Assembly: GCA_048940925.1 (NCBI GenBank)
Contig: JBHLOC010000011.1
Coordinates: forward strand, 38,453 to 102,452
Direction: 5' to 3'
DNA: 64,000 bases
From: Promethearchaeota archaeon
GTDB taxonomy: Archaea; Asgardarchaeota; Lokiarchaeia; Sigyniarchaeales; SOKP01
The notes beneath the pieces are model-generated. The model ran no database searches and was not told where the DNA came from. It saw only the letters and a program-made list of their open reading frames with translations. The stretch's first letter is position 1; each line of letters starts with the position of its first letter. Position numbers and translations under genes: made by a program. Below, one piece after another: positions 20,825 through 28,758 of this stretch.

Positions 20825-21382
20825 ACGTCTGAAGTAAAAGAAGAAATAAGAGAATTTAAAACAGACGAAGATTTTGATACAGAATTTTTTAAAGATATTG
20901 AAAGAAGGTCAAATATTTGGCAGTGCATCCAATGTGGCACATGCACCGCTAGCTGTGAAAGTGGGAGATGGACTGCTTTAAAAACTCGTATAATTGTGAG
21001 AAAAGTTGTTTTAGGAGATTTATCGGTATTAAAAGATCCTGATATTTGGTTGTGTACAACATGTTATCAGTGTTATGAACGATGTCCGCGTGATGTAAGA
21101 CCTACAGATGTAATTATGGAATTGCGAAATTATGCAACTAAGTTGGGTAACATTTCTCCTAATCATAGGGCTGTAGTAGGATATTTAAAGAATTTTGGAC
21201 ATGCTGTTCCAATAAATGAAGAAGTAAGAAAAAGACGAGTTGAATTAGGGTTAGAAGAATTACCCCCTACTGCATTTAGATTTAAACAGGAAGGGGACGA
21301 TAAAGATTTGAAAAATATAGAAGAAAATTTGTTTTATTTACCTCCAATTAAGGAGGGCAAAAAAAGTAAAGAGGAGTCTTAA
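20825..21382 (+). CDS. hdrC: Heterodisulfide reductase subunit C
   Basis: Frame is open 57 codons upstream of the ORF-track GTG and includes CIQCGTCTASC; second motif IWLCTTCYQCYERCPR. Apparent ACG start behind GGTGA. Confidence 0.9.
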   Translation, partial: TSEVKEEIREFKTDEDFDTEFFKDIERRSNIWQCIQCGTCTASCESGRWTALKTRIIVRKVVLGDLSVLKDPDIWLCTTCYQCYERCPRDVRPTDVIMELRNYATKLGNISPNHRAVVGYLKNFGHAVPINEEVRKRRVELGLEELPPTAFRFKQEGDDKDLKNIEENLFYLPPIKEGKKSKEES

Positions 21383-21385
21383 AAT

Positions 21386-22303
21386 ATGACGAAAGAAAAT
21401 ACATTTGCTTTTTTTCTTGGATGTATAATGCCTAATCGATATCCTGCGATTGAAAAAGCGACTAAATTTGTCATGGAAAAGTTAGGATACGAGTTGTTAG
21501 AAATGGAACGTGCGACTTGTTGTCCAGCGCCTGGTGTTTTCCGTTCGTTTAACAAAGTAGATTGGATGGTAACTGCCGCAAGAAATCTATGTATTGCGGA
21601 AAAGTTGGATGCTGATATCTTGACCGTGTGCAATGGATGTTTTGGTACGCTTCAAGAAGTAAATAGGCATTTAAAAGAAAATGAGGAACATCGAGAATTA
21701 GTGAATGAAAGGCTTAAGCTGATTGGTGATTACGAATTTAAAGGGACTATTAACGTTCGACATGTTGCAGAAGTCTTAGGATATGAAGTAGGACCTTGGG
21801 GAATTGAGGATCATATTGTAAGAAAAGTGAATGCTAATGTTGCAGTTCATTACGGTTGTCACTTCTTAAAGCCAACAAGGATACGTGAAATTGAAAGTTC
21901 AGAAAATCCAACTATCATTGAAGAATTTATTGGAGCTTTAGGAGTACAATCAGTTCGATTTAAAGAACAACTTACTTGTTGCGGTGCAGGAGGCGGCGTT
22001 AAGGCATATTCTGGGGATTCAAGTATGACAATTTTCGCAGAGAAAATGAAAAACATTGACGAAGTAAAACCAGACTTCATATTGGATATCTGTCCATTCT
22101 GTCATTTACAATTTGAAACGGGGCAGGATTACTTAAACAAGAATAAAGCATGCAATTACGATTATCCTGTAATTCACCTTTCCCAGCTTGTTGCGTATTG
22201 TATGGGAATGGACCAAGAATTTGTAGGATTACAGTATCAATTAATGGGAAGAGATTATATTTTTGGCGGAGAAGAAGTTAAAAAAGGGGAGGAGGCTATT
22301 TAA
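21386..22303 (+). CDS. hdrB: Heterodisulfide reductase subunit B (two CCG domains)
   Basis: FLGC, CCPAPG, CNGC, HYGCH, CCGAGGG, CPFCHLQ. Confidence 0.96.
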   Translation: MTKENTFAFFLGCIMPNRYPAIEKATKFVMEKLGYELLEMERATCCPAPGVFRSFNKVDWMVTAARNLCIAEKLDADILTVCNGCFGTLQEVNRHLKENEEHRELVNERLKLIGDYEFKGTINVRHVAEVLGYEVGPWGIEDHIVRKVNANVAVHYGCHFLKPTRIREIESSENPTIIEEFIGALGVQSVRFKEQLTCCGAGGGVKAYSGDSSMTIFAEKMKNIDEVKPDFILDICPFCHLQFETGQDYLNKNKACNYDYPVIHLSQLVAYCMGMDQEFVGLQYQLMGRDYIFGGEEVKKGEEAI

Positions 22304-24340
22304 ATGACAATCAAAGAAGAAAAGCTAAAAGAAACAAGCGAAATTCGGAGCGAAATAGAACAAATAAAAGAAGAAGACCCACGAATTGGAGTTTTTATAT
22401 GTCATTGTGGGCATAATATTGCAGGGACCGTTGATGTGGCGGATGTTGCTGAATACGCAAAAACTTTACCCAATGTTGTCAATGCAGAACATTATATGTT
22501 TATGTGCAGTAAACCAGGAGTTCAAATGGTTAAGGATTCTATTAAAGAGTTAGGAGTTAACAGAACAGTAGTGGCATCGTGTTCAAAAAATCAGCACGGA
22601 AGAACATTCGCTAATGCTATTCAAGAAATGGGATTAAACAAACATCGGCACCAGCAGGTAAATATAAGAGAATTTGACAGTTGGGTGCATCAAAAAGAAA
22701 AAGAAAAAGCTACGTTAAAGGCAAAACGATTAGTTGAAGCAGGAGTTAATAGAGCGAGAAAACTAAAGGATGTGGAAACACGTAGAATAGGAACCACAAA
22801 AGCTGCCTTAGTAATTGGTGGGGGTATCGCTGGTCTTCGCGCATCTCACGATCTAGCGGAATTAGGAATTCCAGTCTATCTCATAGAGCGAGAATCAACG
22901 ATAGGAGGTCACATGACCCAATTGAATAAAACATTTCCTACTTTGGAATGTCCACAATGTTCAATATCTCCACTTACTAATGGAGTTGCGAACCATCCAT
23001 TAATCGAACTTTATACGAATGCACAGATAAAAGAAGTTGAAGGCTCGATGGGTAATTTTGAAGTGGCAGTAGAGATTAAACCACGATATATTAAAGATAA
23101 TTGTACTTCATGTGGAGAGTGCGCAATTCATTGTCCAGTGGAAGTTCCTAGTGAGTGGGATAAAGGCATGTCAATGAGACACGCTATTTATAAAGCCTAT
23201 CCACAAGCAATTCCCGCTACTTATGTAAGAGACAAAAAGAATTGTATTGAGTGTAATACTTGCATTAATGTATGTCCCGTACAAGCTGTTGATTTTTCAA
23301 TGCAACCGGAGACCAAAAGGTTTAAAGTAGGCTCAATAGTAGTAGCTGCAGGATACGAAGAATACGATCCTTCAGAGATTGAGCCATATCATTATAAACA
23401 AGAAGGATACGAAAATGTTATAACGCAACTTCAATTAGAACGAATGCTGGCTCCAGGGTCGCTTACTAACAGTCAAGTATTACGCCCATCGGATGCAAAA
23501 GTACCAAAGAATGTGGTAATGATTCAATGCGTAGGAAGCAGAAACGATCAAGTAGGAAACCAATATTGCACTGGTGTTTGTTGTAAATTTGCTGTTAAAA
23601 ACGCAAGAATTGTTAAGGAAATGTATCCTAACACAAATGTTACCATTTGTTATATCGATGTTAGGACACCTGGATTGAATTTCGAGGAACTATACAAGTC
23701 TGCTCAAGAAGTTGGAGTGCGCTTTATTAGAGGGAGACCGTCAGAAATCATTAGAGATCCTGTCTCTGGAGAGTTAAAAGTTAGCGTTGAAGATACCTTA
23801 AGTCAAACACCTTTAAGACTTAAAGGCGATTTAGTTGTACTCTCCGCAGCGATGGTTCCACCACAAGGAATTGGTCCTTTAGGGTCAAAACTACAAGTTC
23901 TAAGGTCAAAAGAAGGATTTCTAAAAGAATTTCATATTAAAATGAATCCTACTTTAAGCAGTAAAGGGGGTATCTTTTTAGCAGGAGCAATTCAAGGACC
24001 GAAAGATATCTCAGAATCGGTTGCTCACGCAGGAAGTGCTGCAGCGATAGCAGCTGCTCCGTTAGTAAAGGGTTATATTGAAAAAGAAATGCTAATCCCG
24101 TCTGTAGATTTAGATTTATGTGTTAGATGTGGACTGTGCAAAACCGTTTGTTCTCCTGCAGCTATTCAAATGAGTGGGGATGGAACGCCCGTGATTAACG
24201 AAGTTGCGTGTAAATCTTGCGGTATGTGCATGCCTGCGTGTCCAACTGGAGCAATACAATTGTTAAATTTTAGTGACGAACAATTATTAGATGAAATAAT
24301 CGCCGTATCAGGCGGAGGTGTTATTTGCGAAAATGAGTGA
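22304..24340 (+). CDS. hdrA: Heterodisulfide reductase subunit A (FAD, Fe-S)
   Basis: IGVFICHCGHNI, VNIRE, GGGIAG, KTFPTLECPQC, inserted and C-terminal 2x[4Fe-4S] domains, QCVGSR, YCTGVCC, QGPKDI. Confidence 0.97.
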   Translation: MTIKEEKLKETSEIRSEIEQIKEEDPRIGVFICHCGHNIAGTVDVADVAEYAKTLPNVVNAEHYMFMCSKPGVQMVKDSIKELGVNRTVVASCSKNQHGRTFANAIQEMGLNKHRHQQVNIREFDSWVHQKEKEKATLKAKRLVEAGVNRARKLKDVETRRIGTTKAALVIGGGIAGLRASHDLAELGIPVYLIERESTIGGHMTQLNKTFPTLECPQCSISPLTNGVANHPLIELYTNAQIKEVEGSMGNFEVAVEIKPRYIKDNCTSCGECAIHCPVEVPSEWDKGMSMRHAIYKAYPQAIPATYVRDKKNCIECNTCINVCPVQAVDFSMQPETKRFKVGSIVVAAGYEEYDPSEIEPYHYKQEGYENVITQLQLERMLAPGSLTNSQVLRPSDAKVPKNVVMIQCVGSRNDQVGNQYCTGVCCKFAVKNARIVKEMYPNTNVTICYIDVRTPGLNFEELYKSAQEVGVRFIRGRPSEIIRDPVSGELKVSVEDTLSQTPLRLKGDLVVLSAAMVPPQGIGPLGSKLQVLRSKEGFLKEFHIKMNPTLSSKGGIFLAGAIQGPKDISESVAHAGSAAAIAAAPLVKGYIEKEMLIPSVDLDLCVRCGLCKTVCSPAAIQMSGDGTPVINEVACKSCGMCMPACPTGAIQLLNFSDEQLLDEIIAVSGGGVICENE

Positions 24341-24785
24341 ATGCGAATATATTGAGCCAGAAGTACTCGAGAAAATGGAAAATATAGTTGTATTTATGTG
24401 TAACGAATGTGGTCAGGGATCAGCAAATACGGCTGGTGTAGCCCGAATGTCCTATAATCCAGCTATACGTATAGTTAGGGTTCAATGTACGGGACAAGTC
24501 GGTCCTATTCAAATAATGGATGCACTTGATAATGGTGCTGATGCTGTGGCCTGCATAGGCTGTTGTTTGGGTGCTTGCCACTTCTTTAACGGTAACATTC
24601 TTTCAATGCACAGAATTAAACTTTTGAAAAAATTATTCAAAGAATTAGGGTATAGCGATCAATTTGTAAATCAGTATACTTCACGAGCCGCGGAAGCAGA
24701 AACTGCGGTTGGGGATTTTGAGGATTTAGTAGAGCGTTTAGCTACAGCAATTAGAGAGGAGGGAACATTTAAAGATGGATGTTAA
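24333..24785 (+). CDS. mvhD: MvhD/FlpD-type [2Fe-2S] subunit
   Basis: FMCNEC, RIVRVQCTG, GADAV..GC..GACHF..GN. ATG 24333 overlaps the hdrA stop. Confidence 0.9.
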   Translation: MSECEYIEPEVLEKMENIVVFMCNECGQGSANTAGVARMSYNPAIRIVRVQCTGQVGPIQIMDALDNGADAVACIGCCLGACHFFNGNILSMHRIKLLKKLFKELGYSDQFVNQYTSRAAEAETAVGDFEDLVERLATAIREEGTFKDGC

Positions 24786-26010
24786 AGTGTTTCAATTTAA
24801 CGGATGCAATAAATGTTTTAATGAAAGCATATTATTGAAAGGTGATTCAAGCTATAAAGTAGAGTTTGTCTCTGATCCCAGAAGTTGGAAAGAGGAAAAA
24901 GCAGATGTCTCTATAATTACTGGTTATCTATTACCGGATGATAAGGAGATATTGAATAAAATAAAATTAAATTCAGATAAAATTATTGCTTATGGGGATT
25001 GTACGACCACAGGAGGAGTCTTTGCCTTATCAAATCAACGAGGACATGAAGTGACGCCATTGCAAGACTTAATTGATGGCGTTATAAATATTAATGGTTG
25101 TTTAGGTGAGATCGAGGAACTTCAATCTGAAATAAAAGGTGAAGAATTACCAAAGTTGAAGAATCTATGCACAGTGTGTGGTCGTAGGAAAACTTGTGAT
25201 TACCTAGAACAAGTTAATCGTCAAATAGAATTAGATGACGAAGAAAAGTGTTTTAATGATCTTGGATACCTATGCAATGGGTTTATTGCTAAAGAATGTA
25301 AAGAACGATGTATAGATTACAATGCTCCATGTCGTGGCTGCAAGCCAACAATTGAACGCTCGGGAATTCGAATGTTAGGGATGTTTGGTACACTAATGGG
25401 TAATATCGAAGTTGCCACAGAACATTCTGAAAAAGGAGCCACAGATAAATTAGCAGATAAAGACGACGAAATTACAGCGAGCTTACCAGATGTAATTGGA
25501 AATTTCTTTAGATTCACACTTCCCAAATCAGGTTTACCTAAAGGGAGGATACCCTCTTCGGGAAGTTTATTAGAGGACGTATTTACGGGTAGATTAATTG
25601 AAGAATTACCATTAATTTCAGGTTTATTAGGTGGAGATCATTCCATATCTTTATCGCTTAAAATTCTGGAAACCTACGAACAAGCTAATAATATAGAAGT
25701 GAGTGAAACAACAAAACTATACAGAAGGAATTTACTGAATTTAGAATCGGAGTTAATAGAAGCAATAAAGGATAAAGATCCTAAGAAGTACAAAGAAGTG
25801 ACTGATAACATTCGAAAAATAGGGGGAAACATGAATTTATCTAATCTATATTATGGGGGATTCAAAACGCAAATTGACGATAAAGATAATTTTGAAGAAT
25901 ATAAAACCCACATTTTTGATGTGGTTGAGGGAACCTATAAAAACGGTTCAGTTGAATTTACGATTGATTCAACGGGTATTGTAAAAAAAATTAAAATAAA
26001 AGAGGGATAA
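24775..26010 (+). CDS. MvhG-like [NiFe]-hydrogenase small-subunit homologue with ~150-aa C-terminal extension
   Basis: GCNKC, AYGDCTTTGG, INGC, CTVC, CFNDLGYLCNG, CRGC, DVIGNFFRFTLP, then the extension. Confidence 0.85.
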   Translation: MDVKVFQFNGCNKCFNESILLKGDSSYKVEFVSDPRSWKEEKADVSIITGYLLPDDKEILNKIKLNSDKIIAYGDCTTTGGVFALSNQRGHEVTPLQDLIDGVININGCLGEIEELQSEIKGEELPKLKNLCTVCGRRKTCDYLEQVNRQIELDDEEKCFNDLGYLCNGFIAKECKERCIDYNAPCRGCKPTIERSGIRMLGMFGTLMGNIEVATEHSEKGATDKLADKDDEITASLPDVIGNFFRFTLPKSGLPKGRIPSSGSLLEDVFTGRLIEELPLISGLLGGDHSISLSLKILETYEQANNIEVSETTKLYRRNLLNLESELIEAIKDKDPKKYKEVTDNIRKIGGNMNLSNLYYGGFKTQIDDKDNFEEYKTHIFDVVEGTYKNGSVEFTIDSTGIVKKIKIKEG

Positions 26011-26012
26011 AC

Positions 26013-28481
26013 ATGAGTTTTGCATTATTAAAAGCTGAAATAGTAGACGCGGGATTGTGTCAAGGGTGTGGATTATGTTCTGGATCTTGTAAGCACATTG
26101 AAATGGAGGTAAGGCGCCCAACTCTTAAAGATTATTGTATTTTAGAGAGAGATGGTCAAGATTGTGGAAAGTGTTATCAATTATGCCCTCAAGTAATCCA
26201 GAAGAAGTTTAAAGAAAAGCAACCGTTAGCAATATATTCCTTGAAAAGTAAAAATCCTGAGATTCTTACCAAAGCTTCTAGTGGAGGATTTGTTACTACT
26301 TTCGTTAAAGAATTATTAGAAAATCAAATCCTTAAGAAAGTTGTCATGGTTAAAGAGGAAGATGAGAAACCAACCGCTGAAATTGTTAGCGATCCGGACG
26401 AAGTAGTTCAGAAAGCGGGAGTCGTTTATGGTAGATCAGGAGTTTTAAAGCGATTAGTTGAAGTAACGGGTGAAACATTTGATCAAATAGGAATCGTTGG
26501 TGTTCCGTGTGAAATGCGTGGAGCTTCTGAAATTGAAGAAGAAATGAAAAGAGATATCTTAAAGATAGGCCTATTTTGTAACTCTCAAATTCGAACTGAA
26601 GAGACAGATAAAGGTTTAGTGTGTTCACCATGCTGTAATAACTGTCCTTCGGGAGTTAATGCTCAAGGGTATATTTCGCTGATACGTCAAGGCAAATATC
26701 AGGAGGCAGTAAATTTAATAAGAGAAAACAATCCACTTCCTTCTATTTGTGGTAGAATTTGTACAAACGAATGCGAATTTGGATGTACTTTGATAGGGGA
26801 TGATCATCCTGTTGCAATTCGAGAATTAAAGAAATTTGTAACAGAATGGGAGATTGAACAAGCAAAAACGACTCCGAAGAAGGGATTAAAATTAAAGAAG
26901 AACGCAAAAAAGGTTGCTATTATAGGTTCTGGTCCCGCAGGACTAACTGCTGCCTTTTATTTAAGAAAAAGAGGATATGCTCCTACTATCTTTGAAAAAA
27001 CCGATAAGACTGGTGGTATGCTACGATTTGGAGTTCCCCAATTTAGATTACCCAACTATGTGTTAGATTACGATGTTCAAAGAATCATAGATTCTGGAGT
27101 TAAAGTAGAGTTTAATAAACCATTAGGGCCTGATATGACAATAGAAGACTTAAAAAATAACGGATATGAAGCTATTTTCATTGCTACTGGTCAATATAAA
27201 CCTCGAACCTTACATTTAGAAGGAGAAGACTTTCCAAATGTATTCGTCGCAATAAATTTTCTAATAGACAGAAAATATCGATATTGGGAAAATAAAGAAG
27301 AATTTAAAGGAAAAACCATTGGTGTAATCGGAGGAGGACCCGTTGCTGTAGATGTTGCTCAAACAGCTCTAAGATTAGGTGCTGAAAAAGTCCATTTAGT
27401 AGACATCATGTCTGAAAAAGAATTAGAATTAGTTTTAAGGGAAATCCCCGAAAATGAAATGGCCTTTATACAATATCATTTCGAGAGTTCCACCTCAAAA
27501 ATCACTCAGAATACTAAGGGTAAATTGTTATTGAATTGCTATAATATCGAATGGGGAATACCGGATGAGAATGGAAGAAAACCCTTGAATAAAGTTGAGA
27601 GTTCTGATTATCAAATCCCTGTTGATATTATAGTGATAGCGGTGGGTCAAGCAGTAGATTTTGACCAAATAGACGATGCAACAAACAATAAATTGGAAAA
27701 AGAGCGAAATAAGATCAAAATAAACGAGATAACTTTTGAAACCAACATACCTGGAGTTTTTGCAGGTGGAGACATCGTTAATAATTCTAAAGCTGTAGCT
27801 ATTGCTGCGATCTCTCACGGAAAAGAGGCAGCAATTTCAATTGATAGGTATCTAAAGGGAGAAAACTTAGTGGATGGGAGATATAAGAGGGTAAATGCAT
27901 TTTTCAGTGGACCTAGAAAACCTCCGAAAGATTACTCCTTAAAACCAGAATCATTAGAAGATGCGACTGAGGAGATGAATTGGTCGTTTGATGAGATAGA
28001 TAAAATATTTAACGAAGATATGGCTCTACAAGAGGCAAGAAGGTGTTTAAGTTGTAATCATTTCTGTTCTCATTGCCAAGATTTCCCCGCAATATATTCA
28101 GATCTTACTGCGGGTGAAGTAGGTTCAAAGAAAGGCTATACTACAGTTGTAGCATGGACTCAACGAGGTAAAGAGCTTGTTGAGAAAGCAGTTGAAAATG
28201 GATTATTTGAACAAGGAAAAGTTGATGAAGAAGAATTAAAAAAGGCAATCAATCTAAAATCAAAACGCAAATTGATTACCTTTGAAAAAACTCCAAGACA
28301 ACAGGTGTTAAACTATATATCACTTCAGGGTCCTAGCACGATTACAAAGATCGCAAGCCAGACAGGTCTTGAACCTAAGAAAGCAAGATATGAAGCCCTG
28401 CGATTAGTTCAATTAATGCAATTAGAAATGAAAGCTGAACCTGATATGGAAGAACCAATATTTTCTATTATATGTGATTAA
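26013..28481 (+). CDS. Fusion: ferredoxin + FrhB/FdhB (F420-binding) domain with inserted GltD/NfnB-like FAD/NAD(P) oxidoreductase + C-terminal winged helix
   Basis: CQGCGLCSGSC, SSGG, GVPCE, IGLFC | PCCNNCP, CGRIC, GSGPAG, GGGPVA, FAGGD, EARRCLSC | CSHCQDF..DLTAGEVGSKKGYTTVVAWTQRG | HTH-like tail. Confidence 0.85.
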   Translation: MSFALLKAEIVDAGLCQGCGLCSGSCKHIEMEVRRPTLKDYCILERDGQDCGKCYQLCPQVIQKKFKEKQPLAIYSLKSKNPEILTKASSGGFVTTFVKELLENQILKKVVMVKEEDEKPTAEIVSDPDEVVQKAGVVYGRSGVLKRLVEVTGETFDQIGIVGVPCEMRGASEIEEEMKRDILKIGLFCNSQIRTEETDKGLVCSPCCNNCPSGVNAQGYISLIRQGKYQEAVNLIRENNPLPSICGRICTNECEFGCTLIGDDHPVAIRELKKFVTEWEIEQAKTTPKKGLKLKKNAKKVAIIGSGPAGLTAAFYLRKRGYAPTIFEKTDKTGGMLRFGVPQFRLPNYVLDYDVQRIIDSGVKVEFNKPLGPDMTIEDLKNNGYEAIFIATGQYKPRTLHLEGEDFPNVFVAINFLIDRKYRYWENKEEFKGKTIGVIGGGPVAVDVAQTALRLGAEKVHLVDIMSEKELELVLREIPENEMAFIQYHFESSTSKITQNTKGKLLLNCYNIEWGIPDENGRKPLNKVESSDYQIPVDIIVIAVGQAVDFDQIDDATNNKLEKERNKIKINEITFETNIPGVFAGGDIVNNSKAVAIAAISHGKEAAISIDRYLKGENLVDGRYKRVNAFFSGPRKPPKDYSLKPESLEDATEEMNWSFDEIDKIFNEDMALQEARRCLSCNHFCSHCQDFPAIYSDLTAGEVGSKKGYTTVVAWTQRGKELVEKAVENGLFEQGKVDEEELKKAINLKSKRKLITFEKTPRQQVLNYISLQGPSTITKIASQTGLEPKKARYEALRLVQLMQLEMKAEPDMEEPIFSIICD

Positions 28482-28521
28482 AAAAATAATTAAAAACAAT
28501 AAATACCAAGAGGTAAAAAAT

Positions 28522-28758
28522 ATGAAATTCGATATGGAATTAAATGTCTGTGGGTCTATATGCCCTGTTCCTGCTTTAAAAACTAAAAAACAACTCATGA
28601 AAATGAGACCTGGAACAGTTTTAAAAGTAATAACAGATTACAAACCCGCTAGTGAATCTGTTCCACGTGATTTGGCAAAAACAAAACATAAGCATTTAGG
28701 AACAGAATATATTGATGATGATGAGCAATGGTATATCTATTTTGAAGCAGTAAAGTAA
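28522..28758 (+). CDS. tusA: Second TusA-family sulfur carrier
   Basis: NVCGSICPVP (CPxP), LKVITD; GAGGT SD before ATG 28522. Confidence 0.9.
   Translation: MKFDMELNVCGSICPVPALKTKKQLMKMRPGTVLKVITDYKPASESVPRDLAKTKHKHLGTEYIDDDEQWYIYFEAVK

Follow-up and report, generated by a model that had tools for sequence, protein, structure and literature searches.

We propose that a gene in a 64,000-nucleotide stretch of a Promethearchaeota archaeon genome (Lokiarchaeia, order Sigyniarchaeales; contig JBHLOC010000011.1, positions 38,453 to 102,452 of the forward strand; hereafter the window, with a G+C content of about 30%) encodes the electron-input subunit of a hydrogenase-free, methanogen-type HdrABC–MvhD complex in one Loki-type Asgard family. 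The product of 822 amino acids (P0001) would be linked to NAD(H) and possibly also to F420. We give this reading a probability of about 0.55. The scaffold of the protein appears to be an F420H2-oxidase module of the FpoF/ElpB/Fsr type, in which the lid of about 50 residues is replaced by a circularly permuted cassette of the NfnB/GltD type. The identity of the cofactors, the path of the electrons and the formation of a complex with the Hdr proteins are what we infer from homology and synteny.

The domain content of the protein was examined by a Pfam scan. All four families that had been expected score above their cut-offs, namely FrhB_FdhB_N at amino acids (aa) 75–146 (PF04422, 52.7 bits against a cut-off of 22), FrhB_FdhB_C (PF04432, 67.1 bits against 23.3), Fer4_20 at aa 194–283 (79 bits) and Pyr_redox_2 at aa 299–603 (100.7 bits). 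FrhB_FdhB_C is matched in two pieces: profile positions 2–49 correspond to aa 157–200 and positions 79–149 to aa 667–739. Together with the alignments to PDB chains described below, this supports the view of a preliminary description, which had been made from the sequence alone, that two flavin modules occur in a single chain and that they are nested and not placed end to end. A plain end-to-end fusion and the insertion of a GltD module in canonical order were both considered and rejected; a permuted cassette that replaces the lid fits instead. It is important to note that the architecture is no assembly artefact, because proteins of 819–825 aa with the same architecture are found in more than 100 protein clusters from independent assemblies and in about 35 species genomes. 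Misassembly or a chimeric junction, which would have undone the preliminary description, was rejected on these grounds. For the analysis of conservation we used an alignment of 59 full-length family members, and 45 relatives of the cassette module served as the comparison set. All 20 cluster cysteines of the protein are conserved in the 59 full-length relatives. Eight of them (Cys16, 19, 22, 26, 42, 51, 54 and 58) lie in the N-terminal domain and predict two [4Fe-4S] clusters, as in Fsr, FpoF and ElpB. In the AF2 model of the 822-aa protein the mean pLDDT is 79.8 and both flavin modules fold.

The FrhB part of the protein is split in two. Solved chains of FrhB, Fsr, ElpB-like proteins and F420 reductases align to aa 9–174 and then again from F684-C685-S-H-C688, the second block beginning at residue 191 of FrhB (for example 3zfs_C 191–257 and 8rja_E 272–340). 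In FrhB the cluster ligands are Cys104, 134, 192 and 195 (Mills et al., PMC3591093), and in Fsr they follow the pattern PCX40CX54CX2C (Jespersen et al., PMC10229431). Because the published FrhB ligands map to C166 (in GVPC) and C189 (in GLFC) on one side and to C685 and C688 on the other, the insert separates the four [4Fe-4S] ligands two by two, with FrhB split at aa 189|685, exactly as had been noticed before. These ligands are conserved in 59/59 members. More generally, the FrhB motifs A..GG..T, AG..YGRSGV, GVPCE.RG, GLFC, C.HCQDF and D.TAGE.GS are invariant over the range of 46% to 90% identity. Our structure model suggests that the two halves refold into one core: it superimposes on FrhB 9r51_B with a Z-score of 23.3 and a root-mean-square deviation of 2.7 Å (208 of 282 residues aligned), on 8riu_E with Z 22.1 and on ElpB 8rvu_E with Z 21.8. 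Between Cys134 and Cys192 there are 57 residues in FrhB, and 54 at the equivalent place in Fsr. In the 822-aa protein C189 is followed by no more than 14 residues before the cassette begins, the cassette is separated from C685 by 3, and positions 50–78 of the FrhB_FdhB_C profile have no counterpart. A nested GltD-like module is thus present, as the preliminary description had it, but "insertion" is not quite the right word for it since the module replaces about 50 FrhB residues and is not merely added to them.

By its sequence and predicted structure, the insert of about 480 aa is a circularly permuted NfnB/GltD module, which would carry an FAD and two [4Fe-4S] clusters. For aa 203–684 the best sequence match (9n5u, E 7e-87) is in NfnA of the Thermococcus sibiricus NfnABC, to its NfnL-like domain, and the other best PDB matches are an Nfn-ABC subunit of Caldicellulosiruptor (9bov), StnC of Sporomusa ovata (8oh5_C) and canonical NfnB (4ylf_B). 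Structure matches of the AF2 model give the same picture, with Z-scores of 40.1 and 39.6 to NfnA/StnC and of 35.3 to NfnB 4ylf_B. When 1.84 billion cluster representatives were searched, the matches from outside the family covered aa ~204–690 only. The score to PRK12771 of NCBIfam is 397.1 bits, below the cut-off of 516. The cluster residues of the cassette are C207, C211, C246, C250, C254/E255 and C258 plus C678 and C681, and the cysteines among them are kept in 59/59 members; E255 is conserved as well. The column of C246 has L or I in StnC and T. sibiricus NfnA; it has C here and in 34 of the 45 relatives. The FAD-binding Rossmann motif is GSGPAG (aa 305–310), and the motif of the second Rossmann fold is GGGPVA (aa 440–445).

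The order of the parts within the cassette is not the canonical one. In canonical NfnB an RCLxC leader stands at the N-terminus, and this order is not found here: the leader follows the FAD and NAD domains. Specifically, the leader stretch NWSFDEIDKIFNEDMALQEARRC678LSC681 (aa 645–684) resembles residues 10–47 of NfnB 4ylf_B and positions 4–35 of the Fer4_20 profile, and it also matches the segment after the FAD/NAD domains in StnC and 9bov. All 45 aligned relatives have RCxxC at the C-terminal place of the cassette. Canonical NfnB aligns to aa 203–621 of the model only, and NfnA and StnC extend to aa 684–703. It is because of the C-terminal position of the leader and the limited alignment of canonical NfnB that we regard the cassette as permuted. 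The "complete GltD-like module" that had been placed at about 26625–28055 therefore belongs to the NfnB/GltD family, as proposed, but not with the domain order that this name suggests. Our literature search found no paper that calls an NfnB-type module permuted. The two ends of the cassette meet at one [4Fe-4S] cluster, and therefore nesting in a loop is possible. We rate it as improbable that electrons bifurcate a second time at the FAD of the cassette, because no gene for an NfnA-like high-potential branch was found in the operon, to which the search for such a partner was limited.

The place where the cassette rejoins FrhB is the short sequence RC678-L-S-C681-N-H-F-C685-S-H-C688, in which the cassette ligand C681 stands three residues ahead of the FrhB ligand C685. 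With their ligands only three residues apart, the distal cluster of the cassette and the FrhB cluster are expected to be neighbours. We assume that C678 and C681 form the distal cluster together with C207 and C258, after the pattern of NfnB and dihydropyrimidine dehydrogenase (DPD). The arrangement implies that the FrhB cluster would be the junction of the FrhB core's FAD, the cassette and the ferredoxin domain at the N-terminus. Under the mechanism we propose, a nicotinamide cofactor (NADH in the 822-aa protein and the crown group of the family, and NADPH in the basal members) would give a hydride to the cassette FAD, from which single electrons would pass to the proximal and distal clusters of the cassette and on to the adjacent FrhB cluster. 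Next on their way would come the ferredoxin domain at the N-terminus, followed by the MvhG-like subunit, MvhD and finally the bifurcating FAD of HdrA. The FAD of the FrhB core would be either a second hydride port, for F420H2, for which the odds are about even, or a relay. If this FAD takes F420H2, such a dual-donor inlet would allow exchange between F420H2 and NAD+. A stronger version, in which the FrhB cluster is a three-way junction between ports for F420 and for NAD(H) and an exit to Hdr, and the protein is an Fe-S-wired F420H2:NAD+ oxidoreductase unrelated to Fno, seems unlikely to us. If it is true, a hydrogenase-free bifurcating Hdr of Asgard archaea could take electrons from either of the two cofactor pools or deliver electrons to it.

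Regarding the nicotinamide site, the second Rossmann fold of the cassette reads GGGPVAVDVAQTALRLGAEKVHLVD464IMSEKELEL. Asp at position 464 is found in 57 of the 59 family members. Relatives of the module have Y-R-R in 41 of 45 cases, preceded by GGGN..D.AR and followed by EMPA. The family cassette also shows the changes R450Q and GGGN>GGGP and the loss of EMPA. An acidic residue at the end of strand β2 combined with the loss of two arginines is the textbook signature of a preference for NAD over NADP. As a control we looked at E. coli PreT, which is annotated as a subunit of an NAD-dependent dihydropyrimidine dehydrogenase and has been characterised with NADH; it has A-R-E in the place of Y-R-R. 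From these motifs it is reasonable to expect that the cassette of the crown group prefers NAD to NADP. The history of the site was followed in a quick maximum-likelihood tree of cassettes with SH-aLRT support, in which the FrhB-nested cassettes form one clade (support 100). Within this clade YRR stands in the basal G273, G288 and P0122, VEIR in P0121 and D-I-M/L in the crown. Since basal members with the same architecture keep YRR, nesting in FrhB predates the switch from YRR to an acidic residue, and the use of NADH would be derived rather than inherent in the architecture. Thus the NADH-type fingerprint reported earlier is a conserved feature of the family, but it is not general to the architecture.

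Several observations weigh against the protein being an NAD(H)-linked, and possibly F420-linked, inlet to Hdr. Apart from the YRR motif in the basal members, an acidic end of β2 predicts NAD preference only statistically. The N-terminal ferredoxin domain (pLDDT 31–46) and both junction loops (pLDDT < 50) are poorly modelled in AF2. The remaining points concern F420. In FrhB the subdomain of residues 128–188 forms one wall, that is half, of the proposed F420 access channel (PMC3930138), and the equivalent stretch of Fsr is a flexible lid (residues 204–253). This subdomain is absent from the 822-aa protein and the cassette stands in its place. The QDGG motif is changed to SSGG (window 26280–26285, aa 90–91; the first two positions vary in the family) and the K/R-Y loop near the FAD to V-Y (window 26430–26435, aa 140–141). 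FrhB-fold proteins that do not use F420 exist (HCAR, 5dqr), and matches to the family occur in bacteria. Residue-level contacts of F420 in FrhB were not found in our literature search.

There is an alternative that takes up these points: replacement of the lid may have abolished F420 binding, so that the FrhB core is an FAD/Fe-S relay or a dead end and Hdr receives its electrons from NAD(P)H alone. What has been replaced is precisely the F420-channel subdomain, QDGG and K-Y near the FAD are lost, and complexes of this kind often contain vestigial cofactor domains, such as the FdhF-like domain of StnC and the truncated ElpA. On the other hand, the FrhB core keeps its FAD and cluster motifs unchanged over the whole range of 46% to 90% identity and the PF04422 domain is intact, and conserving a flavin that has no substrate would be odd. 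The organism also makes F420 and keeps many FrhB paralogues: its genome has CofG (382 bits) and two copies of CofE for F420 biosynthesis, and at least 12 further complete FrhB_FdhB_C domains in frames of 371–933 aa (contigs C84, C19, C41, C40, C45 and C85). We consider such a cofactor swap possible but doubtful. The use of F420 by the FrhB core is plausible in this organism with a pocket that is not canonical, and we put it at about even odds. It is left doubtful because the cassette occupies the lid subdomain, half of the proposed F420 channel. The link to F420 made in the preliminary description is therefore weaker than claimed, although the FAD/Fe-S core behind it is conserved and refolds in the model. 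Two side observations concern the paralogues themselves. Some of those on contig C85 adjoin a [NiFe]-hydrogenase large subunit, and their number makes for an unusually large repertoire of F420-type flavoproteins for a non-methanogen.

The connection with Hdr comes from the gene neighbourhood. The gene lies in a tight plus-strand operon with the order DsrH-like, DsrE-like, hdrC-like, hdrB, hdrA, mvhD, MvhG-like, the 822-aa gene and TusA-like (Table 1). The MvhG-like gene ends 2 nucleotides upstream of the 822-aa gene, and the TusA-like gene overlaps its 3' end by 8 nucleotides. The order hdrC-hdrB-hdrA-mvhD-mvhG-like-822-aa gene-tusA is conserved and is kept even beside homologues that are only 46% and 55% identical. 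In the comparison loci, hdrCBA and mvhD have the same order in L001, and the MvhG-like and tusA neighbours are the same in L001 and L002. The placement of the protein on the Hdr wire in place of the hydrogenase, as suggested in the preliminary description, fits this conserved synteny.

The same neighbourhood bears on the possibility that the protein is a soluble Fe-S-wired F420H2:NAD(P)+ oxidoreductase with a role like that of Fno, and that it is not an integral subunit of Hdr, the operon link reflecting co-regulation. Two hydride ports joined by three clusters would suit such an enzyme, the basal members resemble Fno in being of the NADPH type, and no homologue of Fno scores above the cut-off in the genome (best 71 against 149.8 bits). 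However, tight gene coupling and synteny kept over deep divergence argue against it, and an N-terminal exit domain with two [4Fe-4S] clusters would be pointless in a pure transhydrogenase; solved F420-type complexes use this domain to pass electrons onward. We regard this alternative as quite improbable and continue to favour an electron-input subunit of the HdrABC–MvhD complex. It is even harder to believe that the second Rossmann site of the crown group no longer binds nicotinamide, being inactive or serving another hydride carrier such as F420H2: YRR, R450 and EMPA are lost together, and methanogens have an F420-dependent thioredoxin reductase, presumably related to the cassette in fold, but GGGxxA is kept, the NAD-dependent PreT shows a comparable change, and the conserved Asp at the end of β2 is the classical ligand of the adenosine ribose of NAD, whereas F420 has no adenosine. 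In support of the carrier F420H2, that reductase is a separate class of F420 enzyme (PMC8518648).

Full-length copies of the protein were found in about 35 of the 301 sampled Asgard genomes, nearly all of them in the GTDB family of the window. Outside that family there are two genomes in the sister family and one in a distant family, the last with 9% contamination. The copy from the distant family (L010, G295:C137:2056-4533) is 78–80% identical, which points to mis-binning or recent transfer. At the level of 50% identity only two further full-length representatives exist, P0121 (55%) and P0122 (46%). A few kilobases downstream of the 55% identical homologue lies a gene for a small GTPase of the Arf/Ras/Roc type (L002:8107-9183), which is consistent with an Asgard origin.

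The cassette is not confined to the FrhB host. In the tree the crown cassette has as its sister (support 90) the cassette of a second protein that these genomes encode. In the genome studied here this second protein has 920 aa, and the permuted cassette is nested in it between an HdrC-like Fer4 domain on one side and two HdrB-like CCG domains on the other; in the other genomes the architecture is assumed from the length of the open reading frame alone. The cassette of the 920-aa paralogue is 56% identical and carries VDLVDIL. From the tree and the motifs it seems that the derived cassette was copied into a second scaffold, older versions of which carry a YRR cassette of their own. The gene of the 920-aa paralogue (L003:5914-8676, minus strand, contig C29) has as neighbours a small Fer4 gene and a gene for an aldehyde:ferredoxin oxidoreductase. 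Furthermore, many related genomes have a third copy of the cassette, of the YRR type and about 40% identical, within open frames of about 1650 aa (G121:C13:22562-24022, G008:C26:57452-58918, L020 and L021).

The C-terminal tail (aa 760–822) has the conserved pattern PRQQVLDYI..QGPSTI..IA.....KKVRYEALRLVQL...EMK......EPIFS, with R762, R792, L796, R797, L798 and Q800 invariant. It is modelled with a pLDDT of 92.7 as helix-helix-helix-strand-strand, that is three helices and a hairpin wing, and Foldseek matches it to the winged helices of MarR, ArsR, Z-alpha and AspA with TM-scores of 0.75–0.78. Pfam gives no match to the tail of the 822-aa protein itself at E ≤ 10; weak winged-helix matches are present in 28 of 38 family tails. 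The predicted fold, the Foldseek matches and the Pfam matches in relatives together bear out the earlier notion of a winged-helix tail, which may serve either in docking or in DNA binding. The penultimate residue Cys821 (window 28473–28475) is present in 54 of the 59 family members, whose chains end in ...FSIICD/E, and is absent in the basal members. Together with TusA, DsrE and DsrH in the operon, such a cysteine at a flexible C-terminus brings to mind the C-terminal arm of DsrC, but this analogy is pure speculation.

Table 1. Positions in the window of the 822-aa gene, its parts and the neighbouring genes
Feature	Position	Strand	Basis
hdrC-like, hdrB (CCG x2), hdrA (678 aa) and mvhD	20996..24785	+	Pfam and NCBIfam
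MvhG-like Fe-S subunit, 411 aa (P0271)	24775..26010	+	Oxidored_q6 and VhuG matches
Whole gene, FrhB::NfnB-like nested flavoprotein with winged-helix tail	26013..28481	+	Open frame, 822 aa (P0001)
N-terminal ferredoxin-type domain, aa 10–60	26040..26192	+	Weak Fer4 family matches; aligns to Fsr residues 8–60
FrhB N-half, aa 62–203, with PF04422 domain, FAD loops, C166 and C189	26196..26621	+	
Inserted, predicted circularly permuted NfnB/GltD-like cassette, aa 204–681	26622..28055	+	PDB sequence matches, structure matches, Cys conservation
End of strand β2 of the second Rossmann fold, VHLVDIM, aa 460–466	27390..27410	+	
Junction RC678LSC681NHFC685SHC688	28044..28076	+	
FrhB C-half, aa 682–752, with CxxCQDF, SD.TAGE.GS FAD loop and C-terminal surface helix	28056..28268	+	
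Winged-helix tail, aa 760–822	28290..28478	+	
TusA-like gene	28474..28758	+	Pfam TusA, 66.6 bits

Asgard energy metabolism underlies the syntrophy models of eukaryogenesis, and the usual interpretation of the Hdr and Mvh genes of Asgard archaea is that they encode hydrogenase complexes which evolve or consume H2. The operon described here suggests that in one Loki-type family a methanogen-type Hdr is instead connected to NAD(H), and possibly also to F420, by means of a nested two-flavin subunit. Our results also indicate that the permuted NfnB cassette may be a portable hydride inlet. Its hosts are FrhB and the HdrC/HdrB-like fusion in the same genome, in addition to the published StnC/NfnA and HdrA of ANME-1, and within a single architecture its motif changes from the NADPH type to the NAD type. 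Each module and the principle of nesting are already known. New, as far as the searchable literature goes, are the combination of an FrhB host, lid replacement, an NAD-type site and a winged-helix tail, and also the restriction to one Asgard family and the change of the cofactor motif within the lineage. No description of the architecture (FrhB + NfnB + HdrABC in Asgard archaea) was found in our literature search, which did not reach subscription papers.

Among known systems, the FrhB/FdhB/FpoF/ElpB/Fsr-N family (4OMF, 9R51, 7NP8, 8RVU, 8RIU) shares with the 822-aa protein the ligands PC...C...CxxC and the FAD loops (core Z 21.8–23.3), and Fsr, FpoF and ElpB share in addition the N-terminal domain with two [4Fe-4S] clusters. 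The differences are that about 50 lid residues between the second and the third Cys are replaced by a cassette of 478 aa, that a winged-helix tail is added, and that QDGG and K-Y are not kept; the use of F420 is putative here. With NfnB/NfnL, GltD and the N-terminal module of DPD (4YLF, 5JCA, 6S6S, 1GT8) the cassette has in common two [4Fe-4S] clusters, FAD and the nicotinamide Rossmann domain. It is 34% identical to 4ylf_B, has Cys246 and Glu255 as in NfnB and keeps the FRLP arginine (R345). Unlike these proteins, it is permuted, has DIM for YRR, is nested inside another domain and is encoded in an operon without an NfnA-like partner.

The best sequence and structure matches, StnC and NfnA of the Bfu-type NfnABC (8OH5, 9N5U/9N5V, 9BOV), have the same permuted order up to aa 684. 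In StnC the NfnL-like domain (aa 102–565) is likewise an insertion and serves as a non-bifurcating NADPH inlet (PMC10482914). The host there is a NuoG/FdhF-like subunit and the site is of the NADPH type, whereas here the host is FrhB and the site is of the NAD type. In StnC/NfnA the proximal cluster also uses a Lys ligand, with L or I at the position of C246. In ANME-1, HdrA9-11 have an NfnB-like insertion of 500 aa, through which NADPH has been suggested to feed Hdr (Chadwick et al. 2022, PMC9012536). There, too, by the published description, an NfnB-like cassette is nested in an Fe-S domain of an Hdr-associated protein, but that domain is the ferredoxin domain of HdrA and the organisms are Halobacteriota, as compared to an FrhB-type subunit in Asgard archaea. 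By analogy, the closest functional precedent would be Elp-Hdr of Methanothermobacter, in which the FdhB-like, F420H2-oxidising ElpB and a truncated catalytic subunit feed HdrABC via MvhD (PMC12350162). The electron-bifurcating complexes Mvh-Hdr, Fdh-Hdr and Elp-Hdr likewise have an hdrABC-mvhD core beside a donor module. In contrast to these three, the operon of the window has TusA, DsrE and DsrH neighbours, the organism is not a methanogen, and the donor would be NAD(H), possibly together with F420H2, delivered through the nested two-flavin subunit.

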